From: Minisyncoccota bacterium
GTDB taxonomy: Bacteria; Patescibacteriota; Microgenomatia; UBA1400; PJMF01
NCBI GenBank assembly: GCA_003173865.1
Contig: PJMF01000012.1
Coordinates: 8,908-72,907, forward strand
Direction of reading: 5' to 3'
DNA length: 64,000 nt
The notes beneath the pieces were generated by a model. That model was not told the origin of the DNA. It ran no database searches and saw only the letters and a list, made by a program, of their open reading frames with translations. Below are positions 2,315 to 57,661 of the stretch, in pieces (within the stretch, counting starts at the first letter, position 1; every line of letters begins with the position of its first letter). Both the position numbers and the translations under genes were made by a program.

Positions 2315-3451
2315 ATGAAGAAAGCAATTGTTATCATTCCGACATATAACGAGCGTGAAAACATCCAAAACGTGGTGCCGATTTTGTCTGATGTCTTTAA
2401 AAAAATTCCCCACTGGGAAATGGGCATCTTAGTCGTTGATGACAGCTCACCAGATGGCACAGCTGATGTTGTTCGTGAACTTCAACACAAATACAAAGAA
2501 CTTTTCTTGTTAGTTAATCCCAATAAAAGCGGACTAGGAGGAGCCTATTTGAAAGGAATGGCCGAAGCGTTCGGACCGCTCGGCGCTGAAGTTGTCTTTG
2601 AGTTTGATGCTGATCTCTCTCACGATCCCACGAAGATTCCGGCTTTTCTCGAAAAAATTGACGCTGGTTACGACATGGTGATTGGTTCGCGCTACATGAA
2701 AGGTGGCGGTATTCCGGATAACTGGGGACTCCATCGGAAGTTTTTGAGTGTGTTAGGAAATAATATTATCCGTTGTGTCTGGACAAACTTTAGTATTCAC
2801 GACTGGACAGGTGGCTATCGCGCATTTTCAAAAAAAGTATACGAGGCAATTTTGCCAGAAATGCAGAGAGAGATCTTTACTGGATATACATTTCAAATTG
2901 GTTTTTTACATAAAGCTGTACAGAAAAAATTTAAAATCGCAGAAGTTCCTTTTAAGTTTGTCGATCGAACAATTGGTCAATCCAAGCTGGGAGCTGATTA
3001 TATTAAAAATGCGCTGTTGTTTGTTTTTCATGCTCGATATAAAGAAATCGTTGATCATCAGATCTTTAAGTTTGCTGTAGTGGGTGGTATTGGCTTTATG
3101 GTCAACTTAATTTTTCTCGAGATTTTTCATCGCTTTTTTCACATTGAAGCTGGAAATGCCGCAGCGCTCGGAGCCGAAGTTGCCATCATCAGTAACTTTA
3201 TCATTAATAATTACTGGACTTTTGCCGCACACAAAGTCACCAGAGCAACGCAAATGATCTCAAAATTTGTGCAGTTTAATGTGGGTTCCCTGGGTGCCGT
3301 CATTATTCAAAAAATCGTCGTTGGATTAGGAACAAAGTATACTTCTGACGCACTTCGTCTCGAGTGGTTTGTGCTTGCTGTTTTGATCGGCATGGTCGTG
3401 AACTACTTCGTTTACTCACGTTTAATCTGGAAAACGACAACAAAAAAATGA
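2315..3451 (+). CDS. GT2 polyprenol-phosphate glycosyltransferase (DPM1/Ppm1-like) fused to a C-terminal GtrA-like membrane domain
   Basis: IIPTYNERENI, VDDSSPDGT, DADLSHDP, GSRY; the C-terminal KFAVVGG...NFIINNYWTF...KFVQFN segment is GtrA-like with 4 TM helices. Confidence 0.9.
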   Translation: MKKAIVIIPTYNERENIQNVVPILSDVFKKIPHWEMGILVVDDSSPDGTADVVRELQHKYKELFLLVNPNKSGLGGAYLKGMAEAFGPLGAEVVFEFDADLSHDPTKIPAFLEKIDAGYDMVIGSRYMKGGGIPDNWGLHRKFLSVLGNNIIRCVWTNFSIHDWTGGYRAFSKKVYEAILPEMQREIFTGYTFQIGFLHKAVQKKFKIAEVPFKFVDRTIGQSKLGADYIKNALLFVFHARYKEIVDHQIFKFAVVGGIGFMVNLIFLEIFHRFFHIEAGNAAALGAEVAIISNFIINNYWTFAAHKVTRATQMISKFVQFNVGSLGAVIIQKIVVGLGTKYTSDALRLEWFVLAVLIGMVVNYFVYSRLIWKTTTKK

Positions 3452-4944
3452 AACGATTTTCGCTCACTCAATGGATTGTGCTTGCCGCAATAATTGTTGG
3501 GAGTTTTTTTCGTTTATGGAACTTCCCTAATACACTGCAATTTCTCGGGGATCAAGGACGAGATGCTTTAGTTGCTTTACATATCTTTAAAGATCATCAC
3601 TTTGTGTTGATTGGTCCCGTAACGAGTACCGGCAATATGTACCTTGGTCCGTTGTACTATTACTTCATGGTTCCCTTTTTGTACTTGAGTTATCCCAGTC
3701 CTTTAGGTCCGGCCTATGCAATTGCGGCACTTTCAATCGCTACAATTGTGCTTATTTACTACTTAGGCAAAGAATTGATCGGTGAACGTTCAGCGGTGAT
3801 TGCGAGCGTGGCGTTTGCATGTTCAGCAGCTGCCGTGACGTATGCACGCTTTAGTTGGAATCCCAATCCGGCTCCATTTGTTTCTATAATCTTGATCTGG
3901 GCTTCTTATCGCGCGCTTGTTAAAAATCCCTGGTACTTCGTTCTCGTTTCTGTCTGCATCTCGATCTTAATTCAGTTGCACTATGTCACTTTACTTACTA
4001 TTCCAGCTGCAGGAATTATTTGGTTGATGACTCTTTGGAACATTGCGCATACTCCACAAAAAAAATGGAAAGTCTTTTTTTTCAGTACGATTATTTCGGT
4101 GCTTTTATTTTTGAGTTCATTGACACCGCTAGTACTCTTTGACTTGAGACATCAATTTTTAAATCTGCACGCATTGCAGTCATTTCTGTCCCAGAATCAA
4201 GGCAACTTAACACACACTACGAACTCACTGAAAATCATTCAGGTCGCAAAAGAAACCGATGGACGCAGTCGACAAGTTTTATTTGAGCCGTTTATTGGGA
4301 AACATTTTCACTTAAATCAAGTGCTTTTGGCGATTTTTTTGTTGAGTTTTATTATTTTGGCACTGCCGAACAAGCAGAAAACAAATACAGGGATTCAAGT
4401 TATCGCAGTTTATTTTTTTGTCAGCATTGCGGGATTGGCATTTTATGAAAGTACGATTTTTGATCACTATATCGCGTACTTATTTCCCATCACCATGATG
4501 GTGTACGGCATACTCATGGACCGTCTTCTGCAGCACAAATTTGGCGTTGGAGTGGCTGCCTGTATCAGTCTTGGCTACTTGGGGTGGAACATCACTCATA
4601 TGCCACTGCAAACAATTGGCTGGAGTATTTTTGACATGAAGCGCACGGCACAAACATTAATTGATCGTGTGAAACCGGGCGATAAATATAACCTCGTGTT
4701 ATTGACGAGTACGGGCGATATTGAAGGCCAGAACTATCGTTACTTTTTAGAAACAAGTGGAAAACCGCCGCTCCCAAAAGAACGTTGGGGCGAAACAGAA
4801 ACACTTTTTATTATTAACGAAGACGGTAAATTGAAAAAAGTCACTGATTCGCCAATTTATGAGATTGTGGTTTTTCCCAACAAAACGCCAGCTGAAGTGT
4901 ATACTATTTCTCACGGTCCTCAGGTAACTGTCTTAAAAAAGTAG
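3448..4944 (+). CDS. GT-C fold glycosyltransferase (GT39/ArnT-like)
   Basis: Polytopic membrane protein with a first-loop FLGDQGRD, GP..YY and RFSWNPN motifs; ATGA overlap with the upstream gene. Confidence 0.75.
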   Translation: MKRFSLTQWIVLAAIIVGSFFRLWNFPNTLQFLGDQGRDALVALHIFKDHHFVLIGPVTSTGNMYLGPLYYYFMVPFLYLSYPSPLGPAYAIAALSIATIVLIYYLGKELIGERSAVIASVAFACSAAAVTYARFSWNPNPAPFVSIILIWASYRALVKNPWYFVLVSVCISILIQLHYVTLLTIPAAGIIWLMTLWNIAHTPQKKWKVFFFSTIISVLLFLSSLTPLVLFDLRHQFLNLHALQSFLSQNQGNLTHTTNSLKIIQVAKETDGRSRQVLFEPFIGKHFHLNQVLLAIFLLSFIILALPNKQKTNTGIQVIAVYFFVSIAGLAFYESTIFDHYIAYLFPITMMVYGILMDRLLQHKFGVGVAACISLGYLGWNITHMPLQTIGWSIFDMKRTAQTLIDRVKPGDKYNLVLLTSTGDIEGQNYRYFLETSGKPPLPKERWGETETLFIINEDGKLKKVTDSPIYEIVVFPNKTPAEVYTISHGPQVTVLKK

Positions 4945-44470: not shown

Positions 44471-45022
44471 TTAACCTACCGCCAACATCCGTTCAATTGG
44501 CAACCTTGCCCTTTCTGCAATTTCAGCTGGAACCCTAACCTCAAACTTTAAATTCATTAAACTATCCAATAACTTCTCCAACGTAATCATTTTCATAAAT
44601 TTGCATACCATGTCATCGCGCAAAGGATAAAACTTTTTCTCTGGATTTTGCTTCCGCAGTTGGTGGATAATACCATTTTCTGTGGCCACCACATATTCTT
44701 TCACTGGAGATTGTCGAACATGAGTCAACATGCCACCTGTAGATAAGATATGTGTTTTTTGTTCAGGGATTTCTTTTGTTGCCGCATAGTGAATACATTC
44801 TGTTGTGCAACCGCATTCAGGATGAATTAAAAATTCTGCTGATGAATGTTCGCTGAGTTTCTTTAAAACATCTTTTAAATTCGCGCGTGCATGAACGTGA
44901 CACTCACCCGGATAAACATAGATTTTCCGACCAGTCATTCTTGCCACATAACTTCCTAAAAATAAATCCGGCACAAAAATGATTTCCTTATCTTTTGGAT
45001 TATATCGTTCAAAATAATTCAA
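44471..45022 (-). pseudogene. nadA: Quinolinate synthase NadA, C-terminal fragment (5'-truncated)
   Basis: IIFVPD.FLG, GECHVH, HPEC, STGGM, ATE.G and C.FMK motifs are present. It is only 183 aa, and the N-terminal region with the first Fe-S Cys is absent. Confidence 0.8.
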
Positions 45023-45076: not shown

Positions 45077-46198
45077 ATGCTTTATATTCCAGAAAATCCT
45101 ACAAGAAAAAACGAATTTCAAGCTTCACTAAGCGAAGTAATAAATATCTTGTTTTCAATTCATCTTCACACTTTCCAAATTGATTCTCAAAGAAAAGAAC
45201 CAAAAGAAGAGTGGAAAAAATTTATCTTAATGGTGGAAGAATGTAAGAGAGAGAATCCTAAGAAAATGACTGAATGTATTGAGGCGCTCAATCATGCAAA
45301 AACAATAATTCTCAAAGCGAGTCAGCACTGGAATGCTCCCTTGGATTTTGGAAGTGCAGAGACCTTATATCCACATTATTCCGGCCTTGACGTAACGCCG
45401 TTCGAAAAATTAAAAAAAGTATTATATGAATCACTTCGGATCGATCTTGATGATCAAAAATCACCAAGACAAGAAAAAATAAACACTCTTATAGGTTGGA
45501 TTCATGACTTAGAAAGCGAACGGTTAACTTTTTTCAATTCTAAGACTCAAACTTTCGAGACAGTAGATTTTTCCGGTGATCAGTTTAATGAAGATTTGAA
45601 AAGAGATCTATTGCAAAGAATGAAACAATTTCTTTTGAGTCAATTAGCTACAATCATTGATGAAGGTCATACGACAGCAACTAAAAAAGTAGATGCTCAA
45701 TACAGTCAGCGAATTGAGATAAAGCATGAGATTGCAAAACAAATCCTACAATCTGTGGATGCTCTTCCGTTAACTCGAGATACTATTCATCAATTAAAGG
45801 AAATTGTACACGCAAGAGCTCGGACAACGGAAGCTTTCTTATATGGAATAAGGGAGGTGGGTATAGATTCTCTTCACTTCCTTGTCCCGAAGGAAGTTTT
45901 TAATAAAGTAGTGAAAATTAAGCAAACTAAACCTCAAGATTTTGAAACACTTCTTGCCCCTTTATATATCAATGCTTACATGCACACATTGTTAGCATTT
46001 GCCGATGTCTTTTTTACTGACAAACAAATTTACACTGATCTTCACCCATCTGCATCCTTAAAACTTCAGCTAAGAAGAACTATCGAGATTATTTCCGCTT
46101 TCCAGTCCAAGTGCGGTTCTTCTTTTTCTGATGAGAAACTGAAACCATTTCAGCAGTTTGTTGCAGACCTAAAGGCACTTGTTAATCAAGAAGATTAA
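45077..46198 (+). CDS. Hypothetical protein (predicted mostly helical)
   Basis: 373-aa AT-rich ORF; no family recognised. Confidence 0.65.
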   Translation: MLYIPENPTRKNEFQASLSEVINILFSIHLHTFQIDSQRKEPKEEWKKFILMVEECKRENPKKMTECIEALNHAKTIILKASQHWNAPLDFGSAETLYPHYSGLDVTPFEKLKKVLYESLRIDLDDQKSPRQEKINTLIGWIHDLESERLTFFNSKTQTFETVDFSGDQFNEDLKRDLLQRMKQFLLSQLATIIDEGHTTATKKVDAQYSQRIEIKHEIAKQILQSVDALPLTRDTIHQLKEIVHARARTTEAFLYGIREVGIDSLHFLVPKEVFNKVVKIKQTKPQDFETLLAPLYINAYMHTLLAFADVFFTDKQIYTDLHPSASLKLQLRRTIEIISAFQSKCGSSFSDEKLKPFQQFVADLKALVNQED

Positions 46199-46240
46199 AA
46201 TACATTGAAGTGCCGGAAATGAACATCCAGAATTTTTCTC

Positions 46241-46270
46241 TTGCCCAGCGGTACTAAAAAATGGTACACT
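46241..46270 (+). promoter_or_regulatory. Sigma70-type promoter of the glyQS T-box leader
   Basis: TTGCCC-N18-TACACT with a TG extension; the predicted +1 is near 46277, the first base of stem I. Confidence 0.65.
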
Positions 46271-46276
46271 AGCCAC

Positions 46277-46415
46277 GTGGCATTGATTGGCTTGGCAACC
46301 GGGAGTCACAAAACAAAGTGGGCAAGCAAAATGTGCAAGCCAACTAGGGTGGAACCGCGATTCTTCATTCATTGGAGAACCGTCCCTATAAAGTATAAAG
46401 TACTTTATGGAGACG
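46277..46415 (+). ncRNA. T-box riboswitch (translational/SD-sequestering), Gly specifier, ultrashort stem I, no stem II
   Basis: GTGGC-ATT-GA-TTGG-CTT[GGC]AA-CCGG-GA-GTCAC (K-turn hairpin); T-box AACTAGGGTGGAACCGCG at 46342-46359; antisequestrator TAGGG/CCCTA and GCG/CGT; the sequestrator 46381-46415 covers the GGAG SD. Confidence 0.88.
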
Positions 46416-46418
46416 TCT

Positions 46419-47813
46419 ATGTTTACATCAACCCATCCTTCCCTCGAAGATATCGTCGCCCTGGCTAAACGCCGTGGATTTGTTTTTCCTACTTCTGAAA
46501 TTTATGGCGGACTTGCCAATTCCTACGATTACGGTCCACTCGGAGCCGAACTCCTCCGCAATATTCGCAATGAGTGGTGGAAACAATTTATCCACAAACG
46601 TCGTGACATGGTTGGACTTGATTCCCAAATCATGCTTCACCCCGAAACCTGGGTAGCATCTGGGCACGTTGGTTCTTTTTCTGATCCACTCGTCGAAGAT
46701 AAAGTCACCGCAAAACGTTACCGCGCCGACCATCTTATTGAGGCTTGGCTTAAAGAACAAAAACTTGAAAGTAATGAAGTTCAAGTTGAAAATATGCGCA
46801 TTGAGGAAATGGGTGAGTTTATCGCGACCAAAAACATCACCAGTCCAGATGGCAATCCAGTCACAGAGCCACGCAGCTTCAATTTATTATTTGAAACCGC
46901 AATTGGATCAGTAGCTGGAGAAAAATCAAAAGTGTACCTCCGCGGAGAAACAGCTCAGGGAATTTTTTCAAATTTCAAGCAAATTTTAGATTCAACGCGC
47001 GTGCAACTTCCGTTTGGGGTTGGACAGATCGGAAAAAGTTTCCGTAACGAAATTACAACCGGGCAGTTTGTTTTCCGTACTCTTGAGTTTGAACAGGCCG
47101 AAATCGAGTACTTTTTTAACCCTGCTCAAAGTGACTGGAAAGAACTTTTTGAAGACTGGAAGAAAAGTATGTGGAGTTTTGTGACCGAAATACTCGGGAT
47201 TCAAGCTGAAAATCTGCGCTGGCGCCAACATACTGATAAAGAACGCAGTCATTATAGTAAAGATACATATGACCTCGACTACAACTTTTCATTTGGATGG
47301 AAAGAACTTTGGGGAATTGCTTACCGCACTGACTACGACTTGAAGCAACACATCAATCATTCTGGAAAAAGTTTAGAGTACACTGATCCCTACACTGGCG
47401 AAAAATTCGTGCCTCACGTCATTGAGCCGGCAGTCGGTGTAAATCGAATGTTCTTGATGGTGCTCAGTGATGCCTATTTTTACGATGCCGAGCGTCAAAG
47501 AACTGTTTTACGCCTAAAGCCAAACTTAGCACCGTATAAAGTTGCTATCTTTCCATTAGTCAAAAACAAACCAGAAATTGTAGCTAAGGCTGAAGAGGTT
47601 TATCAACTCTGTGCGGTTGTTGCTCCCACCGTCTGGGACGATCGCGGTAACATTGGGAAACGCTATCTTAGTCAAGACGAGATCGGTACGCCTGCCTGCA
47701 TCACGATTGACTACCAAACTCTCGAAGATAATACAGTGACTTGGCGAGACCGAGACACTACTGAGCAAGTTCGAGTCGCTATCTCCGACCTTGCCCAGCG
47801 CATCCGGATGTAA
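46419..47813 (+). CDS. glyQS: Glycine--tRNA ligase (alpha2, GlyQS type)
   Basis: KRRGFVFP.SEIYGG, YLRGETAQG, GKSFRNEIT, FR..EFEQ.E and PHVIEP..G motifs; SD GGAG 6 nt before ATG 46419. Confidence 0.97.
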   Translation: MFTSTHPSLEDIVALAKRRGFVFPTSEIYGGLANSYDYGPLGAELLRNIRNEWWKQFIHKRRDMVGLDSQIMLHPETWVASGHVGSFSDPLVEDKVTAKRYRADHLIEAWLKEQKLESNEVQVENMRIEEMGEFIATKNITSPDGNPVTEPRSFNLLFETAIGSVAGEKSKVYLRGETAQGIFSNFKQILDSTRVQLPFGVGQIGKSFRNEITTGQFVFRTLEFEQAEIEYFFNPAQSDWKELFEDWKKSMWSFVTEILGIQAENLRWRQHTDKERSHYSKDTYDLDYNFSFGWKELWGIAYRTDYDLKQHINHSGKSLEYTDPYTGEKFVPHVIEPAVGVNRMFLMVLSDAYFYDAERQRTVLRLKPNLAPYKVAIFPLVKNKPEIVAKAEEVYQLCAVVAPTVWDDRGNIGKRYLSQDEIGTPACITIDYQTLEDNTVTWRDRDTTEQVRVAISDLAQRIRM

Positions 47814-48402: not shown

Positions 48403-48430
48403 TTGACAATCCCAGACAGTCCATTATAAT
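48403..48430 (+). promoter_or_regulatory. Consensus sigma70 promoter
   Basis: TTGACA (48403-48408), N16, TATAAT (48425-48430). Confidence 0.85.
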
Positions 48431-48437
48431 TTCCTAC

Positions 48438-48518
48438 ATGTTCGCAGGTCTTTTATACTCTATCTCTAGTCTTCTTCTCCTTATTATTATCAAGGCGCAT
48501 CTCGCTTGGGAGAAGTAG
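48438..48518 (+). CDS. Leu/Ile-rich attenuator leader peptide MFAGLLYSISSLLLLIIIKAHLAWEK
   Basis: The ATG lies at the predicted +1; tandem LLLLIII codons at 48471-48491; a terminator follows. Confidence 0.75.
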   Translation: MFAGLLYSISSLLLLIIIKAHLAWEK

Positions 48519-48541
48519 TATTAAAGTAAAAAGAAATACAC

Positions 48542-48567
48542 ACCCCTCTCAAGCAGAGGGGTTTTTT
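48542..48567 (+). terminator. Attenuator terminator
   Basis: ACCCCTCT-CAAGC-AGAGGGGT-TTTTT; the competing pairing is GCTTGGGAG (48504-48512) with CTCTCAAGC (48546-48554). Confidence 0.85.
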
Positions 48568-48583
48568 GTTTTAGAAAGGTTTT

Positions 48584-51277
48584 ATGAGTAGTAACAAAGG
48601 AACTGCGGAATCTAGGATTCTTGCTTCCAGTGAAATTTTTCATCAAGAAGAGCAGTTAAAGCAGGCGGCAGATAACTTATCTAAACGTTGTTTTAATGCA
48701 ATGTTTAACAGAGCCGTTCAAACATCTGGAAATCTTCAAGAAACAAAGCTACCTAAAAAAGGCCAAAAAGGCGAATCTATTCAAGCAAAGCCTATGCTGG
48801 GATACCGTCGACCAGGCGAGTTTTTTTCTGTCCAAGGTATAGATTCTCAGCAAGAACTTGAAGCTATTTTTAATAGTCTTATTCTCAATGCCCTGCGTAA
48901 ACTCGCAGCGGAAGCAACAACTCCCGAAGAGCGAAAATTGAAAACCGAAATGCTAGGGATGGTGTTACCCGATTTTATTAGAGCATTAGTTTTAGATGGC
49001 GAGTTCATTGATCATATTCATGCAGATGATATTTCAAACATAGTAGATATTGCTTTAGATTGGTTCCTCCATCCGGAATTAGTCTCTCTGACACAAATTA
49101 AAATCGGTTTTGGAGGTAATGAGGAAGCGAACAGTCGTATGCCTGCTTATCCAATCAGTGCAATTCGTACTGCCGAAAGAGTCCAAGAAACTTTTGGTAG
49201 ACATCGAAACTGGGCGCTCTTAAAAGAGTTATATAAACTGACCGAAAAATCTGAAGACATTCGCCAGGCTTTAGAACTACACACAGAAGAATTTCTTTTT
49301 GTGAAAAGACAGGATGATGCTTCAATACCAACTCACGATTCAAGTACATACAGTGAGTTTGTACGAGACGAGCTTGCGAACTGTCAATATGTACGTGTTC
49401 AAGATGTTACTATGATCTTGCTAAAAACTTTTGCAGCTCTTGGTCACCCTTTAACCGAAAAAGAACAGGTTTCTCTGGCCCAAAAATATCACTTCACGGA
49501 CCAAACTCCTACTTTAGTATTTTTTAATGCTGCTCACGCAGCAATTACTATTAACTCGATGAATCGAGAGGCGGTCTTACAAACCCGCGAATACAACAAA
49601 GCTTTGATCACTGCCTACATGTCGGAATTTCATCCAGATCTTCCTATGCCTATATTTCAAAATGATCGAGATTGGAGTGAACATGACTCTTTCACCAAAC
49701 TCATGATTCTCTATGCCCAATTTGTCATTGAAAGTCATAGAGACGAAATGGGTGGAGTCGATGATCAGTTAGAGTCATTTGAAGCAAATCACCGTCAGAA
49801 TGCAAAAAGTACTCATTATGGAATGAATCCTGCCAAAATTTACGGATCTCTTCATCCATATTTCTTTGGTGATTCTCCCAATACCGAGAGCGGTGACCAA
49901 CTTCCTTTCAACAACGTGATGACTCCTCTTTTCCAACCTCGTCATATCGTTGGCCATCAAGGTGTCCCTGAGGTTACTTTTGGTGTCTATAGAGACGTTT
50001 TCAAAAGACATGCCAATCTACGAGATCTAGTGGAATGGTTAAAAAGAACAGAAAATTTGTCAAAAACATCCCTCTCTCAACTAGCAATAGAAGTTGATAC
50101 AAAGGTCATGGAAGCAGAAACACCTTCTTATGGCAAGAGGTTAATCGACTATATCACTAAAAAGGTGATGCCAGAAGCCAATATTGTTTCAACATCCAAA
50201 AACAAATTGCTGGAGAAGGCAAAGCATTTAAGGAATGAAGAGAACTCAGAAGTAGCCAGACAAGAATGGCTCTCCTTTTGTGCAGAACTTCAGTCTGAAG
50301 ATATTTTTGCTAAAACTGGAGTGACTGCTGACGAAGTAAGTAATGCGTTAATTCAAGTTCAAACTTGGCAGAGTGAAGCAAGAAATTTAAACGAACGTCT
50401 CTTTGCAACTACTGACCCAGATCAGCGTTTTGAAATCACAGAGCAATTGGCCGATTCATCTATTCCTATTCCAGTGCGAAGCACTGTGCGTATTGGAACA
50501 TCTGTGGGAAAACATGCCACTTATTATCTCAAAGAAGGTGATACACCTTTAGAAGGTTTCCACTCGGCTGATCAAATTTCATTAGTAAACTATACTCAAC
50601 GCTTTACTGCTGCAAGTTTGAATAAGCGCACTTTAGAAGGAACTGTTCCTTACACACAAAAAAATGTCTTGCCTGCTCTCATTGATAGTGACACCTCAAG
50701 AGGATGGGATATTTTTGCAGCCGCTTTAGCCGATCAATTGGGAACTATCTTTGGTGAAGAAGTATTTGCTCAATGGATGTCGGAAGACGTTGATAAAATG
50801 GCGAATCTTTATCGAGGCTCTGTTCAGGAAGAGCTAACATTTCAAGGAGATAAAGTAGAAAAAGCATCTCACGTTCATAATTTTCTTAGTCAAGGTATTC
50901 AAAACATCGCAGAAGAAAGAATTCAGGTCATCTTGGATGAAGCAGCACATCAAGGTATTACTTTAGAAACTCAGGGAGTCCGCCACTATGTATGGTCCGC
51001 CTTAGTTGGCTCATGGACCACTGAAGGTGGTAAGCAAGCGATTACTGATTCAGAAGTCATTGTCGACGAGATTCGAAGCACTATGTCCGACTTTATGGTC
51101 ATACTTCACGATGTCGCTCAGGCAAAAGGATATCATGGTTCTTCTGAAGAATTGGCCAAGGATGCTGGATGGATTGCTCTAGCAGAAAGAGAGTATCAAA
51201 AGGTAATGAGAAAAATATTCGCTGAGGATCAAGTAAACAGCGACGCTGTGCTGTTTGCTGCTGTGGCTGAGATTTAA
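48584..51277 (+). CDS. Large hypothetical protein (897 aa) with a possible Rossmann/HUP-like core interrupted by helical inserts
   Basis: Long ORF with RBS AGAAAGG; motifs IKIGFGG, LVFFNAAHAA, YGSLHP, IVGHQGVPEVTF and TYY. Confidence 0.8.
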   Translation: MSSNKGTAESRILASSEIFHQEEQLKQAADNLSKRCFNAMFNRAVQTSGNLQETKLPKKGQKGESIQAKPMLGYRRPGEFFSVQGIDSQQELEAIFNSLILNALRKLAAEATTPEERKLKTEMLGMVLPDFIRALVLDGEFIDHIHADDISNIVDIALDWFLHPELVSLTQIKIGFGGNEEANSRMPAYPISAIRTAERVQETFGRHRNWALLKELYKLTEKSEDIRQALELHTEEFLFVKRQDDASIPTHDSSTYSEFVRDELANCQYVRVQDVTMILLKTFAALGHPLTEKEQVSLAQKYHFTDQTPTLVFFNAAHAAITINSMNREAVLQTREYNKALITAYMSEFHPDLPMPIFQNDRDWSEHDSFTKLMILYAQFVIESHRDEMGGVDDQLESFEANHRQNAKSTHYGMNPAKIYGSLHPYFFGDSPNTESGDQLPFNNVMTPLFQPRHIVGHQGVPEVTFGVYRDVFKRHANLRDLVEWLKRTENLSKTSLSQLAIEVDTKVMEAETPSYGKRLIDYITKKVMPEANIVSTSKNKLLEKAKHLRNEENSEVARQEWLSFCAELQSEDIFAKTGVTADEVSNALIQVQTWQSEARNLNERLFATTDPDQRFEITEQLADSSIPIPVRSTVRIGTSVGKHATYYLKEGDTPLEGFHSADQISLVNYTQRFTAASLNKRTLEGTVPYTQKNVLPALIDSDTSRGWDIFAAALADQLGTIFGEEVFAQWMSEDVDKMANLYRGSVQEELTFQGDKVEKASHVHNFLSQGIQNIAEERIQVILDEAAHQGITLETQGVRHYVWSALVGSWTTEGGKQAITDSEVIVDEIRSTMSDFMVILHDVAQAKGYHGSSEELAKDAGWIALAEREYQKVMRKIFAEDQVNSDAVLFAAVAEI

Positions 51278-51307
51278 TATTTGATCGTGCTAAAATGAGA
51301 CATTTGT

Positions 51308-52429
51308 ATGAAAACAGACATCATTGAAGTATTGACTAAGCTTGTTTCATTCCAAACAGTGTCAGCTACAAGTGATCAAGAAAAAAACGCATTCCACGCT
51401 CAGCAATTTGTTGAAGCACACGAATACATCAAGCATTTATTTCAAGACACTCCCTTAATTGTTGAGACTATTGAAACTGCTGGTAAAAAAACTCTTACTG
51501 TTTCAAATAAAAAAACGATCGCTCCTGATATTGCAATGATTGTGCATTTAGACGTAGTCCCAGCCGGGGAGAGCTTATGGACAATGCGACAAGAGGGCGA
51601 TAGGCTCTTTGGTCGAGGCGTTTCCGACATGAAGGGCAGTATTACCGCCTGTTTAATAGTGATGAGAGAATTAGTAAAAATGAAATCAAATGATTTGCCT
51701 TCAGTCATGTTAATTATCACCCCCGACGAAGAAATCGGTGGTGCCTCAATGAAATTTCTACGTGACAAATTAAAATACTCTCCTCAATTTGTGCTTTGTC
51801 CTGACGGCGGTTATGGGTGGAAAATGGTTACGAATGCAAAAGGATGCCTACAGTTTCACTTTCAAACAACTGGAAAATCTGCTCACGCCTCACGACTCGC
51901 TGAAGGAGTGAATGCAGCAGAACCCCTGATTGAATTGTACCAGCAGCTACGTCGTGTTTTTCCCCATCAAAACGAAGCAGCTTGGGAAACAACAACTTTT
52001 AATTTAGGAGCCTTTCATACAGGTCAAGCCGCTAATCAAGTTCCAGATTTGGCAGAAATGAAGCTAGACTTTCGTTTCACTAATCAAAGTGAACGAGCGC
52101 TAATTGAGAAAGAACTCCAATCTGCAATCAACGCAAGTCCGTTAGAAATTAAAACTCTATCAGTCGTTGATGGTCATTTTTTTGAATCCAATCCTAATCA
52201 TCAAATCACGAAAAAATTCCTTTATTGTGTAGAAAAAGTGATCGGCAAACAGATTGAATTTGTAAAAGAGTACGGTGCTTCTGACGCAAGGTTCTTTACA
52301 GACGTGCCAACAGTTGTTTTGATCGGAGACGGGAAATATCATCATTCTTCAAAAGAAGAAATGTCTTTAACGAGTTTGGAACAATATGCCGAAGCAGTAC
52401 TAACATTTATTAAGAGTTATCGCCAATAA
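51308..52429 (+). CDS. M20 family metallopeptidase/deacylase (ArgE/DapE-like)
   Basis: HLDVVP, GRGVSDMKG, DEEIGG, GKSAHAS, NQVPD, GASDARFF and HS..E motifs. Confidence 0.93.
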   Translation: MKTDIIEVLTKLVSFQTVSATSDQEKNAFHAQQFVEAHEYIKHLFQDTPLIVETIETAGKKTLTVSNKKTIAPDIAMIVHLDVVPAGESLWTMRQEGDRLFGRGVSDMKGSITACLIVMRELVKMKSNDLPSVMLIITPDEEIGGASMKFLRDKLKYSPQFVLCPDGGYGWKMVTNAKGCLQFHFQTTGKSAHASRLAEGVNAAEPLIELYQQLRRVFPHQNEAAWETTTFNLGAFHTGQAANQVPDLAEMKLDFRFTNQSERALIEKELQSAINASPLEIKTLSVVDGHFFESNPNHQITKKFLYCVEKVIGKQIEFVKEYGASDARFFTDVPTVVLIGDGKYHHSSKEEMSLTSLEQYAEAVLTFIKSYRQ

Positions 52430-53381
52430 GGGTGAGAAAATTTGGCATCAAAACCTCGCGAGGTCTATTCGTTTTTCTTTCCCAGATCTGTCTTTGAAGG
52501 TCAGCCAATCCCTGCGTACCACGTTCTTGAGTAATGGCTTGAGCTCTTAATAAAACTATTGCTGCGAGCATCGCATTCGTTATTTCAGGATGATTTTGAA
52601 CAGAGACAATGGGCCTATCTTTATAACTCAGCATTTGATTCTTGCCGGCACAATTAGATGCAAGTACATCGGCATTTTTGGGTTTTTGAGAAACATGTTG
52701 CGAATGAGTCGCTGAAATAGTGAGAGAATCTCCTTCATAACAATGAAGTAAAGGTTCCGATTTCGCCCTTTCAGTCAGTTGAATATCAACAGGGCCAATC
52801 TCCCGTTCTCTATTACCTCCAGTAGAAGTCATCCAAGAAACCTCTCCGCCCTGACAAAACGCAAACAACTGATGACTAAAACAAATGAGTAAACTCGGAG
52901 TTTGACTTAACGACAACACTTTATCAAAAGCAAGTACCCGTCTAATCCAAGGAGCATCCTGATGATGCATATCATGGATTGTTGTGACCATTGCCTCGGA
53001 TCCAGACATAATCACCCCATCGTACTCTTCCAACTGACGAGGAGGAGATGTTTCACCCTGACTTGCATGCCATACTTCAAAACGCTCATCATGTGGACTA
53101 AAACCAAGTTGGTAACGAAAAATATCGGAAACCGTATGATTACCCGAATGACCTACAGCGCCTATTTCGAGTAATTTTCTGCGCTCAGAGTTGAGTGGAG
53201 CAAAAAGACCATTTCCCCACCGTAATGCTAACTCTACAAACAAGATTTTAGATTGAGTCCTCAATTTATCGGCAACAACTCTTATCATTTCACGATGATG
53301 TGTTTCAGTATCTGCAATCTCTTCCTCACAACATTGTTTCTCTTGCTGAGTTAATGGAGAACTTATTTCTGCGAATGCCAT
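52410..53381 (-). CDS. Type 1 glutamine amidotransferase-like hydrolase (standalone, GMP-synthase-like/gamma-glutamyl peptidase type)
   Basis: GVIMSGS, LICFSHQ (nucleophile Cys), EIG, HSQHV and QNHPE (His-x-Glu) motifs. Confidence 0.85.
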   Translation of the reverse strand: MAFAEISSPLTQQEKQCCEEEIADTETHHREMIRVVADKLRTQSKILFVELALRWGNGLFAPLNSERRKLLEIGAVGHSGNHTVSDIFRYQLGFSPHDERFEVWHASQGETSPPRQLEEYDGVIMSGSEAMVTTIHDMHHQDAPWIRRVLAFDKVLSLSQTPSLLICFSHQLFAFCQGGEVSWMTSTGGNREREIGPVDIQLTERAKSEPLLHCYEGDSLTISATHSQHVSQKPKNADVLASNCAGKNQMLSYKDRPIVSVQNHPEITNAMLAAIVLLRAQAITQERGTQGLADLQRQIWERKTNRPREVLMPNFLTLIGDNS

Positions 53382-53384
53382 ACA

Positions 53385-54494
53385 TTAATCCAATATTAGT
53401 TTCTCTACCGTATATTTCTTCAGTTTCATTTCATCGACTTCAAAACCCAACCCAGGCGCTGTCGGCACTTGAATATTTCCCTCGAGGTCAACAGTAAAAC
53501 TGTCTTTTACCAAATCATCTTTGTAGTAAAAACTATTTGGAGACATGTCTGCGGGATCAATAAAGTTCGGCAACGAAGCAACTGCAATGTTAAACGCTCG
53601 TCCAATACCTGTCTCAAGCATGCCACCACACCATACCCCCACATGTTGGGCTTGGCAAAGATCGTGAATTTTTTTACTTTCTAAAATACCGCCTACACGA
53701 CCGGGTTTGATGTTAATAATTTTGCAAGCACCAAGAAAAAGTGCTTTACGTGCATCTTCCACTGACAAAATGCTTTCATCTAAACAAATTGGTGTTTTAA
53801 TTTGCTTTTGCAGCACAGAGTGATCGACAATGTCGTCATCTCCAAGTGGTTGCTCGATCATTGTCAGATTATATTGATCAAGTTCTTTAAAAATCTCGAT
53901 CTGGTCGAGTGTAAACACAGAGTTTGCATCAACCATCAAGGGAACGTCACCAAACCTCGCACGCACTGCTTTGACCAGCTTGACGTCCCAACCAGGCTTA
54001 ATTTTCAGCTTCATACGCTGATACCCTTGAGAAATTCTTAACTCAATTTCTTCCAAAGTCGCCTCAATAGAATCCTTAATCCCAATACTTTCTCCTGCTC
54101 CAATCTTTGCGCGCGTGCCACCAAGCAAAGCCGACAGAGAACGTTCTTCTTGCAAAGACTGGACCATCAATAATGCTGTCTCTAAACCTGTTTTCGCAAA
54201 ATTATGTTTTTTAATAATTTTTAATTCATCCATGACCGCTTGGACTGTGGTGAACTCCTTATTCAAGACGAGCGGCGCAATATAATCGCGCAACACTAAC
54301 ATACAAATATCAGTCGTATCTGGCTTATAAAATGGATACGGCATTGCAGCGGCTTCCCCATATCCAATGAGTCCATCTGCCATTTCAACTTGAACGATCA
54401 CGGTGGCTTTACTTTCCAATTTCCACGAGCTCACTGCAAAAGAAGTGACCATCGGCACATCGACTTTGTAGAGAGTAATTTTTTTTATTTTCAT
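53385..54494 (-). CDS. menC: o-succinylbenzoate synthase / N-acylamino acid racemase (NSAR/OSBS subfamily, enolase superfamily)
   Basis: KLKIK, VDAN, IEQP, LDES, NIKPGRVGG and WCGGMLETGIG motifs; no other men genes are in the window. Confidence 0.9.
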   Translation of the reverse strand: MKIKKITLYKVDVPMVTSFAVSSWKLESKATVIVQVEMADGLIGYGEAAAMPYPFYKPDTTDICMLVLRDYIAPLVLNKEFTTVQAVMDELKIIKKHNFAKTGLETALLMVQSLQEERSLSALLGGTRAKIGAGESIGIKDSIEATLEEIELRISQGYQRMKLKIKPGWDVKLVKAVRARFGDVPLMVDANSVFTLDQIEIFKELDQYNLTMIEQPLGDDDIVDHSVLQKQIKTPICLDESILSVEDARKALFLGACKIINIKPGRVGGILESKKIHDLCQAQHVGVWCGGMLETGIGRAFNIAVASLPNFIDPADMSPNSFYYKDDLVKDSFTVDLEGNIQVPTAPGLGFEVDEMKLKKYTVEKLILD

Positions 54495-56053
54495 GAAATG
54501 ACAACCTCTCGTAATTGAATTAATTCTCTGAGTGCACGTTCTAGAGACATTGTTTTTTGTTTTTCATTTACAAAAGCGAGGGCTCGATCAGCACCATTTT
54601 GTTTTTGTTGTAACACCCACTGTGGATAAGCCAAGAAAGTTTGCTCTTCTGTAGATAATCCTTCGGCAGCTAAATCCAGGATTCTTTGTGTAAATGTATA
54701 AACCGAAAGATCCTCTACTACTCCGTCTAATCCTTGTTCAATAGCTACATCGCGTAACTTACTGAGTTGTCCCCAAGGAAAATGTTCAATGTATTTTTTT
54801 GTTTTATCTAAATTGCGAATTAAGCCAGCTTGCAATGCCGATGGACTTGTTGCCACCGAAAGTGCAATTTCTTTTCCCGCAGCATAAAGCTCTCGATCAG
54901 GAAGATTTGATCCAGGCGCTCTGCCCTCGATATACATAAAATGCGCATGTGCTTCAAAGATTTCTTCTACTTTCATTTGCGAAGTTTCTTTGCACGCTGC
55001 AACAAACTCCGCAACTGGAAAACCATCTTTTTTCAATGAATAACGAATACGACCTCCTGCTTCAAACTGCGCAAACTGCAGTACTTCCATATGCGCAATT
55101 TCTGGCGAAACTTCATACGCTTTAATAGCAGTTCCCGTAATAATCTCCGATAAATTCCGAGCTTTCCAAGTCTTCCCATCTAAATAATCGAGGACTGGTG
55201 GATTCCCATCCACGATCATGATGTCATCTTTTGCGTTTTTGTAACCAACTGCGCTCTGACTTGGCATCACAAAATAAATACCACTATCGCCACCAAACAT
55301 CCATTGAAAATATTGTGCGAGATTTTGAAATGGTTTATCGGGAAAACGAATCAAACGTCGATCACCAGCAACAGTTGACCCACTCATCATGCGCTCCCAC
55401 ATCATCAAACGATTTTCTTTGTATTGAGAAATCTTTCCTTCCTCAAAAGGACTGTTTGCAAAAAGTGCAATATTGGCCGCACTCGCACCGATGATCACAG
55501 TAAGTGCATCAGCTGCTTGAGAAACAGCAACTTGAGTACTGGGACTATTTTGCGCTCGCGCATCAATTCCAGCCGAATGATCCCAACCACGCTGCCACAA
55601 AAAGTCATACACTCCTTTCGGCACGACAAATTTTTTGTATGTCTTCATGTCTCTTGGAGCAAGTGGGTGAATTGATAGATTTATGGCAAAAGCATCTTCA
55701 GCTTGTAACGCCTTTTGAGTAGTTGAAATATCAAGTTGAATCGCTTTATGTAATTCCTGGAGCGTTTCGAATGGTGGCAAAGCTGTCTCTAATAAATTGA
55801 ATCCATTGTCCAAACCTTGCTCACCAAGATCTTGGCTGACAACTCCTACCGCAACTGTTTTCCCTTTTTTATCCTTTAAATTGTGAAGATGATCAAATGT
55901 GTGACGATGACTTGCCTGTTTGCTTAATTCATTAAAAAACACATCAGTAACATGATGAGAACTCCCGTCCTTTTTAGAAACGATAGTTTTCTCAAGTTCA
56001 GCACCAAATTTTTCGTTTTTCTTGACTAATTTTGACACAGGTGATTTTAACAT
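54491..56053 (-). CDS. Glutamate--cysteine ligase / carboxylate-amine ligase family protein
   Basis: GAELE, DNGFNLLE, HP, Q, ALFANSPF, R...W and IEGR motifs; its stop overlaps the menC ATG. Confidence 0.75.
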   Translation of the reverse strand: MLKSPVSKLVKKNEKFGAELEKTIVSKKDGSSHHVTDVFFNELSKQASHRHTFDHLHNLKDKKGKTVAVGVVSQDLGEQGLDNGFNLLETALPPFETLQELHKAIQLDISTTQKALQAEDAFAINLSIHPLAPRDMKTYKKFVVPKGVYDFLWQRGWDHSAGIDARAQNSPSTQVAVSQAADALTVIIGASAANIALFANSPFEEGKISQYKENRLMMWERMMSGSTVAGDRRLIRFPDKPFQNLAQYFQWMFGGDSGIYFVMPSQSAVGYKNAKDDIMIVDGNPPVLDYLDGKTWKARNLSEIITGTAIKAYEVSPEIAHMEVLQFAQFEAGGRIRYSLKKDGFPVAEFVAACKETSQMKVEEIFEAHAHFMYIEGRAPGSNLPDRELYAAGKEIALSVATSPSALQAGLIRNLDKTKKYIEHFPWGQLSKLRDVAIEQGLDGVVEDLSVYTFTQRILDLAAEGLSTEEQTFLAYPQWVLQQKQNGADRALAFVNEKQKTMSLERALRELIQLREVVIS

Positions 56054-56070
56054 ATCTTTGCTTGAATATT

Positions 56071-56098
56071 TTGCTTTTTTAAAAAAATGCTGTACAAT
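56071..56098 (+). promoter_or_regulatory. Sigma70-type promoter of the Phe leader
   Basis: TTGCTT-N16-TACAAT. Confidence 0.65.
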
Positions 56099-56106
56099 TC
56101 TGGGAC

Positions 56107-56178
56107 ATGTCGAGGCATGAAACATTTACTTTTAGTTTTTTCTTTTTTACCAAACTTCCTCAAAGGGAGCTTTGCTAA
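56107..56178 (+). CDS. Phe-rich attenuator leader peptide MSRHETFTFSFFFFTKLPQRELC
   Basis: The ATG lies 8 nt after the -10; 6 Phe in 8 codons; a terminator follows. Confidence 0.8.
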   Translation: MSRHETFTFSFFFFTKLPQRELC

Positions 56179-56201
56179 TTGAACTGAAAAAGCAACGCAA
56201 T

Positions 56202-56225
56202 AACTCCCTAAAAGGGAGTTTTTTT
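56202..56225 (+). terminator. Attenuator terminator
   Basis: AACTCCCT-AAA-AGGGAGTT-TTTTT; the competing pairing is AGGGAG (56164-56169) with CTCCCT (56204-56209). Confidence 0.85.
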
Positions 56226-56244
56226 ATTTTAAAAAGGAGCAAAA

Positions 56245-57174
56245 ATGATTTCAACTCAAGAAGCAACTAGTCAACGAATCTCTGAAATGGCGCAAGTTAT
56301 TAACAACGCGCTATCCGCAACTCAAGAAATGATGCCCAAATTGATTAATAAAACAGTTCCAGTTGAAAATGCCTCAGGAACCGACATTATTATGGGTATC
56401 GGTCTCGTTTCGAACGGCAAAGTGAGCAGGGGCTTAAATCCGAGTGCCATTCCAATGGCCATAGCAGCCACCAATTTGCAGCGTGAAATCCAACAAAATG
56501 ATTATCGAAGCAAAATTAAGGTGTTAATTGCGGACACGTACGCAAAACAATTCCACAGAGAATATATTAATGCTGCTTACGCCGATGACGATGAACTTGA
56601 TCGAGATCCCGTAGCAGAAGCTGCTGTTTCGATCGAGCAAGCTCTAGGATTGCTGTTCATTGCTCTCGGAGCAACCGCAGATGTTGAAATTATTCGCACA
56701 TCGGATCTTGAAACTCCTAATTTTGAAACTTATGAAGAACAAGAAACCTATCACCTCAGTCGCGCTGTTGAAGAAGGTGCCGGTCTCATCGTCGGTTGGT
56801 CAAGCGAACGAGCACCATTGCCAGGAATGCCACCAGTTCGCGATGAAACCGTGTTTCATCGACATATGGATAAAGAACATCCAGATCTTCGCGGTATGTC
56901 AGGGAGGTTATACACCGTCGAAGGCCTTAGTTTAACTGACCAAATAAAAGGTCAGGCTCAATATGTCCCTCCTTACTTCACGACTCGAGTTGAAGCAGCT
57001 CTGGGCACAATTGTCGATTTAGAAGGACTAATAGACAAAAAAAACCAATTAAAAAATTTCTTTAAAGAGGTGGGGAGAGCACTTCGTAAAATTTTGCCAG
57101 GCGAAAAGACGGATGGGAAAGGTGATTTGCAGATCGTTCATGAACTGGTGAGAGAAATCGCTACTCAGGTGTAA
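56245..57174 (+). CDS. Hypothetical protein with a possible class-Ic aaRS/CDPS-like Rossmann fold
   Basis: RBS AAGGAG; motifs IIMGIGL, VLIADTYA, YEEQE, IVGW...DETVF and VPPYF. Confidence 0.8.
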   Translation: MISTQEATSQRISEMAQVINNALSATQEMMPKLINKTVPVENASGTDIIMGIGLVSNGKVSRGLNPSAIPMAIAATNLQREIQQNDYRSKIKVLIADTYAKQFHREYINAAYADDDELDRDPVAEAAVSIEQALGLLFIALGATADVEIIRTSDLETPNFETYEEQETYHLSRAVEEGAGLIVGWSSERAPLPGMPPVRDETVFHRHMDKEHPDLRGMSGRLYTVEGLSLTDQIKGQAQYVPPYFTTRVEAALGTIVDLEGLIDKKNQLKNFFKEVGRALRKILPGEKTDGKGDLQIVHELVREIATQV

Positions 57175-57183
57175 AATCTGCAT

Positions 57184-57211
57184 TTGACTCAGTCCGAAAA
57201 TCACATATAAT
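57184..57211 (+). promoter_or_regulatory. Sigma70 promoter
   Basis: TTGACT-N16-TATAAT. Confidence 0.8.
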
Positions 57212-57221
57212 TTAATGTCAT

Positions 57222-57296
57222 ATGTTTTCAAAGAATTACGTCATTGCTGTTATGCGCCAAGCCCTGCACGCAGGGGGAGGGTTTTGGATTTCGTAA
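57222..57296 (+). CDS. Putative attenuator leader peptide MFSKNYVIAVMRQALHAGGGFWIS
   Basis: First ATG downstream of the predicted +1; the ORF spans the protector and antiterminator segments. Confidence 0.5.
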   Translation: MFSKNYVIAVMRQALHAGGGFWIS

Positions 57297-57322
57297 AAAT
57301 GTAAAACATTTATTTAAAAATC

Positions 57323-57353
57323 AAAACCCCTCTCCAAACCAGAGGGGTTTTTT
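57323..57353 (+). terminator. Attenuator terminator
   Basis: AAAACCCCTCT-CCAAACC-AGAGGGGTTTT-TT; the competing pairing is GAGGGTTTTG (57277-57286) with CAAAACCCCTC (57322-57332). Confidence 0.85.
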
Positions 57354-57373
57354 GTAAAAGGAAGGAGTTAGAA

Positions 57374-57661
57374 ATGGAACCTACAATGGATTACAGATTA
57401 AAATTTACGGAAAATGCTTTTAGGCAAGACGACGATTCTGAGTTTTTTGTGATGAGTGCAGCCGTTGAACTCCTACTAGAAGCTCGAAGTGCTCAAGAAG
57501 AAGCATTGTATTGGGAAGCTTTATGTGATTTATTTCCAGCAGCTTATGAAATTATCCGTAAAGAAATCCTTTTTCACGAGTTTACTTCACGAGATTTCAC
57601 TCAGACAGAGCGAAAAATTAGTGATCGTTATCGGCTCGTATTTGAACATCCTGAAAAATGA
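57374..57661 (+). CDS. Small acidic hypothetical protein (95 aa)
   Basis: Strong RBS AAGGAG right after the terminator; no family recognised. Confidence 0.6.
   Translation: MEPTMDYRLKFTENAFRQDDDSEFFVMSAAVELLLEARSAQEEALYWEALCDLFPAAYEIIRKEILFHEFTSRDFTQTERKISDRYRLVFEHPEK

Follow-up and report, generated by a model that had tools for sequence, protein, structure and literature searches.

Leader-peptide attenuators, a TyrRS-like protein family and a putative D-to-L amino-acid conversion module in a bacterium of the Candidate Phyla Radiation

The subject of this analysis is an island of about 9 kb (positions 48403 to 57661) in a 64,000-nucleotide stretch of DNA, called the window, which is contig C7 of a bacterium of the Candidate Phyla Radiation (CPR; genome G000, 1.2 Mb, 95% complete). 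Names attached to its homologs (Gottesmanbacteria, Microgenomates) suggest a place in the Microgenomates branch. The island carries three promoter-leader-terminator units, of which those with leaders 1 and 2 very probably represent genuine attenuators. In the folding model they are predicted to open once a ribosome is stalled by the lack of usable Leu/Ile-tRNA (leader 1) or Phe-tRNA (leader 2). Between the two units lie four enzyme genes whose products probably perform a D-to-L conversion of amino acids. The gene behind leader 2 encodes a 309-amino-acid (aa) protein, X, which models as a tyrosyl-tRNA synthetase (TyrRS) from end to end. We tentatively read the island, with slightly less than even confidence, as a system for starvation-induced D-amino-acid salvage and tRNA quality control, in which synthetase mimics would free tRNAs jammed by D-amino acids.

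Attenuator units and their recurrence

The units comprise the following features.

48403..48430, + strand: promoter P1, sigma70-type, TTGACA-16-TATAAT, 12/12 consensus
48438..48518, + strand: leader peptide 1, MFAGLLYSISSLLLLIIIKAHLAWEK, 26 codons, control run LLLLIII
48542..48570, + strand: attenuator terminator 1, antiterminator partner at about 48498-48516
48584..51277, + strand: gene of an 897-aa protein without family assignment, homologous to P0003 (30%) and to an 840-aa protein of genome G501 (31%)
56071..56098, + strand: promoter P2, weak, TTGCTT-16-TACAAT by eye, 8/12, under the threshold of the promoter scan
56107..56178, + strand: leader peptide 2, MSRHETFTFSFFFFTKLPQRELC, 23 codons, control run FTFSFFFF
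56202..56226, + strand: attenuator terminator 2, from terminator scan and alternative-hairpin folding
56245..57174, + strand: gene of the 309-aa TyrRS-fold protein X, without HIGH, KMSKS decayed
57184..57211, + strand: promoter P3, TTGACT-16-TATAAT, 11/12
57222..57296, + strand: leader peptide 3, MFSKNYVIAVMRQALHAGGGFWIS, 24 codons, switch window VIAVMRQA
57327..57353, + strand: attenuator terminator 3, from terminator scan and alternative-hairpin folding
57374..57661, + strand: 95-aa acidic open reading frame (ORF), orphan, no family, no homolog in 100 genomes

A preliminary description of this DNA had proposed three such units on the plus strand, the first leader being rich in Leu/Ile and the second in Phe. 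All three are present, although P2 matches the consensus at 8/12 positions only, and modelled stalls open leaders 1 and 2 on their respective runs. The ATG of leader 1 is located 7 nt past P1, at about +1. The switch window of leader 2 is also overlapped by a second, Leu-rich frame from 56117 (MKHLLLVFSFLPNF...), but the Phe frame was preferred for the position of its ATG at about +1, which leader 1 shares. For leader 3, an alternative frame with Cys-Cys, starting 3 nt past the -10 box, was set aside. Alternative hairpins fold for the units. Stretches containing leader and terminator gave z values of -1.6 to -3.3 against shuffled sequences, while leader-only stretches folded no better than the shuffles.

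A strict scan of the whole genome yielded 28 terminators, nine of them intergenic ahead of a gene; as the scan demands 6 T in 8, weaker terminators may escape it. It was only in the three units of the island that a free-standing short ORF occurred together with an antiterminator duplex of -10.7 to -16.6 kcal/mol and a terminator 23-27 nt ahead of a long ORF. Two further short-ORF terminators, on C20 and C31, were discarded due to a gene tail or an overlap with the downstream ORF.

The effect of a stalled ribosome was modelled by masking the RNA codon by codon and computing the terminator probability each time. For leader 1, this probability was 0.99 without a ribosome, fell to 0.02-0.05 with a stall at L12-L15, was intermediate at S10-S11 or I16-I18 (0.25-0.53) and returned to 0.98-0.99 from K19 on. 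For leader 2, it dropped from 0.99 to 0.02-0.10 at F7-F12 and was at least 0.96 afterwards. The pheL control of E. coli revealed a pattern like that of both leaders. The leader 3 terminator was improbable for stalls at I8-A14.

Chance rates were determined from 102,437 open windows of eight codons in intergenic DNA, the leaders' own windows counted in. At least six Phe codons occurred in five windows and at least seven Leu/Ile codons in four, i.e. at a rate of about 5e-5. By contrast, 1,911/102,437 windows contained at least four Val/Ile/Met codons and, hence, the composition of leader 3 is unremarkable. A control-codon run ending 20-50 nt ahead of an intrinsic terminator is present for leaders 1 and 2, while leader 3 is without a clear run. 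The suggestion that a particular amino acid is sensed by leader 3 is not supported, even though the geometry of the unit is present. DNA contigs of run X1, possibly the source sample, span all three leaders without differences; no RNA data set carrying the sequence was listed.

Like pheL, leuL, ilvL and pheM of E. coli, the island leaders have their codon run placed such that a stall frees the antiterminator. They differ from the E. coli attenuators in their start at or near +1 and the lack of a Shine-Dalgarno sequence, in residing in a CPR host that also uses T-boxes, and in their targets, which are unnamed genes instead of genes for biosynthesis or canonical aminoacyl-tRNA synthetases.

The layout recurs outside G000. 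A homolog of the window's ligase was detected in one of 300 genomes of the class, G501, which belongs to another family. On one strand, G501 contains a promoter, the leader VINNTFQIIMVLLMVRISAAGSA, a terminator, the 840-aa homolog of the 897-aa protein (31% identity over 647 aa, E 6e-78) and genes for a GCS2 ligase and an N-succinylamino-acid racemase (NSAR), whose products are 51% and 66% identical to those of the window. A second promoter, the leader MNVTRRKEFFFFFFLANRGASV, a terminator, a 334-aa ORF and two M20 proteins follow. The first G501 leader is of an Ile/Met/Val/Leu type (...FQIIMVLLMV...) and opens for modelled stalls at Q7-V15; the second harbors a run of six Phe (...KEFFFFFFL...). 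In G970 (2/25 genomes of that family), a 37% homolog of the 334-aa ORF follows the Phe leader MLGQLLVQKFFFFSPTYCGDGS (...QKFFFFS...), which opens at L6-F11; farther upstream are genes for an NSAR-type enzyme and peptidase E. Ahead of these lies a 476-aa ORF without family (L065:5595-7025), a candidate for a third tagging enzyme, perhaps an aspartyl one. In line with what the preliminary description had anticipated, the homologs in G501 and G970 thus sit behind leaders of matching amino-acid class, and the enzymes accompany them. Since the leader sequences of the window, G501 and G970 were rewritten and yet retained their amino-acid class, selection on the leaders can be argued.

Protein X and its family

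Queried alone, X had no database homolog, and Pfam/NCBIfam gave no name for the 897-aa, 309-aa or 95-aa proteins. An iterated search detected the family in 11/351 class genomes, G000 included, and further yielded 55 proteins and 13 GTDB loci; a match in G036 (E 0.009, an aminotransferase) was discarded as chance. G000 itself has a paralog of X on contig C8 (29% identity). An AlphaFold2 model based on a 67-sequence alignment reached a pLDDT of 87.7, compared to 38 for the single sequence. Foldseek returned 34 matches at E<=0.001 (best E 5e-6), TyrRS throughout among the matches listed. In the VIA comparison, archaeal TyrRS ranked top with Z 15.6 (residues 13-309; rmsd 3.6, 234 aligned residues, about 12% identity), and human TyrRS scored Z 15.2. 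Cyclodipeptide synthases (CDPSs) reached Z 8.1-9.7, their match being confined to the catalytic domain (residues 24-228). The modelled fold therefore comprises a Rossmann catalytic and a helical anticodon domain, as in the class Ic TyrRSs of archaea and eukaryotes, whose Tyr-pocket Y and D are also kept in the family.

What separates X from these enzymes is the lack of ATP motifs. S/A-x-A/G-x-P stands in place of HIGH and K/R-V/A-S-P-Y in place of KMSKS, while the equivalent of the TyrRS ribose/amino-binding D-E pair and the first Lys/Arg of KMSKS are retained. Relative to TyrRS, the dimer region is shorter by about 25 residues. No member passed the cut-off of Pfam PF00579 (4/13 members matched, best E 0.024, the window copy not among them), and the members scanned did not match the CDPS family PF16715. 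Invariant in 33/33 aligned members are G-x-G, H, Y-x3-E-x2-D, D-E and S-P-Y; the Y, E and D correspond to Y151, Q155 and D158 of TyrRS and, for the first two, to Y178 and E182 of AlbC, following the numbering in PMC3105412. Both amino-binding Gln positions of TyrRS are Glu in 33/33 members, and a Thr/Ser lies three residues past the second Gly, again in 33/33; the C8 paralog is without this Thr/Ser.

The two copies of G000 are sisters on long branches (100/100), where long-branch attraction is possible. The C8 copy, which follows a sub-threshold T-box match of Tyr type, reads Y-x3-Q-x2-D. For the Phe-led window copy, the most likely register in the model gives Y163-x3-E167-x2-H170. The Asp that binds the Tyr hydroxyl is kept in members under a Tyr T-box and appears to be lost in the copy under the Phe leader. 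To this extent we infer support for the earlier proposal that a leader predicts the substrate of its protein.

Four loci (L026, L027, L028 and L033) were duplicated between two locus sets and counted once, which leaves 21 X loci outside G000. tyrS lies within three genes downstream of X in all 21, and X is translationally coupled to it in many. tRNA-Tyr(GUA) is present in 17/21 loci and a T-box core upstream in 10/21, the most frequent order being T-box, tRNA-Tyr, X, tyrS. Both G000 copies sit apart from tyrS. By this context and the TyrRS fold, the family has its ties in tRNA and amino-acid metabolism, and the match to unrelated families that would have refuted the earlier proposal did not occur. 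The triplet UAC at the end of stem I is constant in 8/14 X-locus leaders, those in which the pattern matched. AUA specifiers are given for 1% of Ile T-boxes in PMC7778990. The T-box of the C8 paralog (RF00230, E 1.5e-16, 74.2 bits, under the 93-bit cut-off) has a UGGU bulge and UAC in context. It is the best T-box match in G000, the other three leading glyS, the his operon and trpS. Upstream of X in L008, L009 and L013, T-boxes with a very short stem I, a UAC specifier and a tRNA-Tyr gene within the leader region were noticed; in L008 the antiterminator core is seemingly lost.

Editing genes occur at 4/21 loci: YbaK (G462, L036), a B3/4-TyrRS (G316) and dtd directly downstream of X (G351). At the G316 locus, the B3/4 editing domain is fused to TyrRS (L026:5874-7742) with a TrpR-like gene ahead, and two unrelated ORFs (636 aa; GH10-like, 485 aa) lie between tRNA-Tyr and X. 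An enolase-family racemase is present at 5/21 loci. In G276 it is accompanied by a GCS-like ligase and a glutamine amidotransferase (GATase), and in four Saccharimonadia-type loci a 397-aa ORF, an NSAR-type enzyme and a D-Ala-D-Ala dipeptidase were found. This 397-aa ORF (L030, L032, L035, L038, at about 2400-3700) had no Pfam/NCBIfam match and looks GNAT/Fem-like by eye only; it heads a racemase-dipeptidase-X-tyrS-tRNA-Tyr operon, with tyrA or pheA convergent downstream in 3/4 cases. In L034 (985-3903), X is followed by two tyrS genes with a pair between them resembling nucleotidyltransferase/HEPN by eye. L029, L031 and L033 are titled Gammaproteobacteria/Pseudomonadales; their gene order is CPR-type and their X groups with CPR, so the labels look wrong and these loci were not counted as evidence for a range beyond CPR.

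X is not supported as a DTD replacement since the distribution of dtd shows no anticorrelation with X. The idea that it stands in for a missing synthetase was rejected, as a motif check covering part of the synthetase set found TyrRS, LeuRS, ValRS, TrpRS, GluRS and CysRS in G000. ARAGORN detected neither tRNA-Tyr nor tRNA-Asn in the G000 assembly, probably due to its incompleteness.

Enzyme module

The remaining genes of the island are as follows.

51308..52429, + strand: M20 ArgE/DapE-type deacylase, family profile match
52410..53381, - strand: class I GATase-fold hydrolase, Cys and His-x-Glu present, nearest solved relative gamma-glutamyl peptidase 1
53385..54494, - strand: racemase of the NSAR/OSBS subfamily (OSBS, o-succinylbenzoate synthase), K-x-x-R (K263/R266 equivalent) present
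54491..56053, - strand: GCS2-family carboxylate-amine (gamma-glutamyl) ligase, family profile match

Family searches bore out the identities that had been assigned to these four genes. The nearest solved relative of the NSAR enzyme is the N-acylamino-acid racemase of Amycolatopsis (1sja, E 1e-87); the protein scored 342.7 bits with TIGR01928 (cut-off 200.65) and contains K263-x-x-R266. The GATase matched gamma-glutamyl peptidase 1 with E 1e-10 and the ligase the GCS2 family with E 3e-9. The ligase most likely starts at the ATG at 56053 rather than at 56125. In G000, attenuator 2 is oriented divergently to the minus-strand operon and does not control it. Searches of G000, G501, G970 and G276 (95-98% complete) did not detect menD, ilvD or pheA. 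Without menD, there is no menaquinone role for an NSAR/OSBS gene to fill in these genomes. CPR bacteria are largely devoid of amino-acid synthesis, as the preliminary description noted, but G000 retains some, as its T-box-led His operon indicates.

A known D-to-L route combines GNAT, NSAR and M20 enzymes, as outlined in bioRxiv 10.1101/2022.03.03.481873, and it is by analogy to this route that the role of the module is predicted. With the Geobacillus-type system (GNAT succinyltransferase, NSAR/OSBS, M20 desuccinylase) the island has in common the K-x-x-R of NSAR, the M20 protein and the absence of a menaquinone context. It differs in that an ATP-dependent GCS2 ligase and a hydrolase resembling gamma-glutamyl peptidase occupy the place of the succinyl-CoA-using GNAT transferase, and in its connection to tRNA-sensing control and synthetase mimics. 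The preliminary interpretation, in which the island supplies hydrophobic amino acids or charged tRNA, is partly supported, the supply route being likely more specific, namely D-to-L salvage and not synthesis.

Possible function of the island and its surroundings

Bacteria release D-Leu, D-Met, D-Phe and D-Tyr, as stated in PMC5898190, and PMC1807948 describes that synthetases load D-isomers, whereby D-aminoacyl-tRNA accumulates and tRNA is tied up. In the proposed mechanism, the GCS2 ligase would add a gamma-glutamyl tag to a hydrophobic D-amino acid, the NSAR enzyme would invert the tagged compound, and the GATase-fold peptidase and/or the M20 protein would remove the tag, yielding an L-amino acid that the auxotroph cannot make. 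D-amino acids would also be loaded on tRNA. There, the TyrRS mimic might bind via its amino-acid pocket and anticodon domain and, without the need for ATP, hydrolyse the D-aminoacyl ester, so that the tRNA would return to its synthetase and the D-amino acid enter the tagging step. Ancestral X may have served tRNA-Tyr under a Tyr T-box; the duplicated window copy would then have lost the Asp for the Tyr hydroxyl and come under a Phe leader, and for Leu/Ile/Val the corresponding role would fall to the 897-aa protein. An auxotroph would gain both from freeing a jammed tRNA and from inverting the D-amino acid. Since a leader peptide senses usable L-aminoacyl-tRNA, it should respond to a D-jam as well as to starvation. 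For this benefit and this mode of sensing, X is read as an ATP-free enzyme acting on aminoacyl-tRNA. A D-aminoacyl deacylase is the most likely form, a prediction in which we have somewhat less than even confidence. The task, clearing or avoiding D-aminoacyl-tRNA, would resemble that of TyrZ and of the trans-editing factors DTD1, YbaK/ProX and B3/4, types of which occur as neighbors of X. These deacylases have an unrelated fold, and TyrZ possesses the ATP motifs of a complete synthetase.

Several observations do not fit this interpretation well. T-boxes sense uncharged tRNA, not D-charged tRNA. The broad-specificity DTD beside X in G351 makes a second deacylase look redundant, and dtd is present in 5/20 genomes with X-type genes compared to 28/151 in the class sample. 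No racemase is nearby in 16/21 X loci, and the five racemase-linked loci are not independent cases because they form one clade in the tree. In G000, no attenuator governs the ligase-racemase-GATase operon. The D-to-H change in the pocket leans on the spacing to a GW motif and on the modelled helix 163-176, while MAFFT places the Tyr of the window copy six residues later. Among the attenuators, the controls leuL and trpL switched on one of two measures only (sequestration of the terminator 5' arm, 0.83-0.85 at the control codons and 0.01 at the stop), the Phe leader of G501 switched weakly (0.47 versus 0.52 without ribosome), and the open window of the G970 leader begins three codons ahead of its Phe run. 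Finally, the 334-aa proteins of G501 and G970 are without detectable homology to X, hhalign did not show a TyrRS fold for the 897-aa and 334-aa families (E 0.4, 0.26, 0.0035, 0.13, 0.099 and 0.17), and a gapped-alignment test of these families stayed within its null.

A broader version is rather unlikely. It assumes a CPR clan of ATP-free synthetase mimics, one per class (Tyr, Phe, Leu/Ile/Val) and each with its own T-box or leader, which would turn D-charged into usable L-charged tRNA and represent a TyrRS-CDPS intermediate. Candidate routes are an epimerase acting on the tRNA or a deacylase feeding the gamma-glutamyl racemase loop.

It is also unlikely, if conceivable, that X is a CDPS-type tRNA-dependent transferase that moves the aminoacyl group of L-aminoacyl-tRNA to an acceptor, e.g. 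a D-amino acid, the resulting dipeptide being handled by racemase and dipeptidase. X and the CDPSs of the AlbC family share the class Ic catalytic fold without ATP motifs and the Y-x3-E pair, the conserved Thr/Ser is a possible nucleophile, ESM Atlas gave CDPSs as neighbors of X at 24-32% (score 0.87, a weak lead), and dipeptidases (M15, S51, M20) occur in the operons. On the other hand, X retains the anticodon domain absent from CDPSs, lacks the catalytic Ser expected two residues past the pocket Gly (AlbC S37), has a paralog on C8 without the Thr/Ser and resides in translation operons instead of tailoring clusters. Moreover, using up charged tRNA during its shortage would be counter-productive, and each module already contains another candidate tagging enzyme.

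Slightly less probable is a non-canonical synthetase that backs TyrRS/PheRS in starvation by another mode of ATP binding or an activated donor. The complete TyrRS architecture of the model, the retained D-E pair and first Lys/Arg of KMSKS, the co-transcription with tRNA-Tyr and an induction logic suited to a supplier of charged tRNA would agree with it, but HIGH and KMSKS are both replaced and a canonical TyrRS is always adjoining, and is present in G000 too. The earlier idea that the unknown proteins themselves charge tRNA is thus not supported.

Improbable to a similar degree, and each a little more so than the foregoing, are two further roles. X could epimerise D- to L-aminoacyl-tRNA on the tRNA, using the two Glu where TyrRS has two Gln. 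These positions are invariant, the ester acidifies the alpha-proton (established chemistry), a direct rise in usable charged tRNA fits the induction, and redundancy with DTD would not arise; yet no precedent was found, and the first position differs between the window copy (E) and the C8 paralog (Q). Alternatively, X might be without catalytic activity and serve as a TyrRS partner or to hold tRNA. The coupling of X to tyrS and the inactive TyrRS halves of trypanosomes, mentioned in PMC9437257, point in this direction, while the missing dimer-region residues, the position of both G000 copies away from tyrS and the invariant acidic and His pocket residues, which look catalytic, argue against it. 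That the island is a chance set of acquired genes with T-rich look-alikes as leaders is very improbable and largely refuted, since patchy distribution and GC content (0.38-0.44 versus 0.45 in flanking housekeeping genes) are outweighed by the control-run chance rates and by G501 and G970, which have the same leader class with rewritten sequences and the same enzymes.

Attenuators, T-boxes, NSAR salvage and synthetase paralogs are known kinds of elements. The X family, its operon, the gamma-glutamyl NSAR route and leader-peptide attenuators in CPR bacteria were not found in searches of the open-access literature; a review table of synthetase duplicates in PMC9437257 names no TyrRS entries other than TyrZ and fused TyrRSs. 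There is a real chance that X represents a new enzyme class. The family is an undescribed group of synthetase paralogs whose regulators name the substrate to test, and the module is likely an ATP/glutamate variant of D-to-L conversion. There is also evidence that CPR bacteria, considered poor in regulation, combine T-boxes with leader-peptide attenuation and exchange one for the other once a gene is duplicated. If the salvage interpretation is true, it would explain how auxotrophic episymbionts tolerate and feed on D-amino acids from their neighbors, and it would provide a novel way of salvaging mirror-image amino acids as well as a new chirality-handling enzyme for translation engineering.

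The 897-aa family has three known members. Its sole genomic homolog, in G501, was reached via the ligase search; none was detected in 250 order genomes or 400 phylum genomes, none was confirmed in metagenomes, ESM Atlas gave nothing, and all 15 matches of a motif scan were chance frames. The order of its motifs (G-F-G-G...P-A-Y, N-A-A-H-A, Y-x3-H-x2-F, G-x-x-E-x-x-F, Y-Y) parallels those of X and the 334-aa proteins by eye. A class Ic fold is a guess that could go either way. The 95-aa ORF had been counted to the module, which its orphan state (homologs in 0/100 genomes) does not support.

The island is flanked by recJ on one side and by a T-box-led glyS (46173-47813) on the other. The T-box-like leader of glyS (46173-46390, + strand) has a UGGA bulge fitting the Gly discriminator U and a weak Rfam match (E 2e-5); it is without an obvious U-tract terminator ahead of the start codon and, thus, possibly translational. 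Farther out, an orphan 373-aa ORF (45077-46198) was noticed, and of nadA only the C-terminal part (44471-45022, - strand; 183 aa, Pfam positions 133-295), which precedes an unassigned 249-aa ORF and nadC. Elsewhere in G000, sub-threshold T-boxes precede the tRNA-His/hisG/hisS/hisC operon (C8:45646-45833), with a TrpR-like gene upstream, and trpS (C32:17257-17532).

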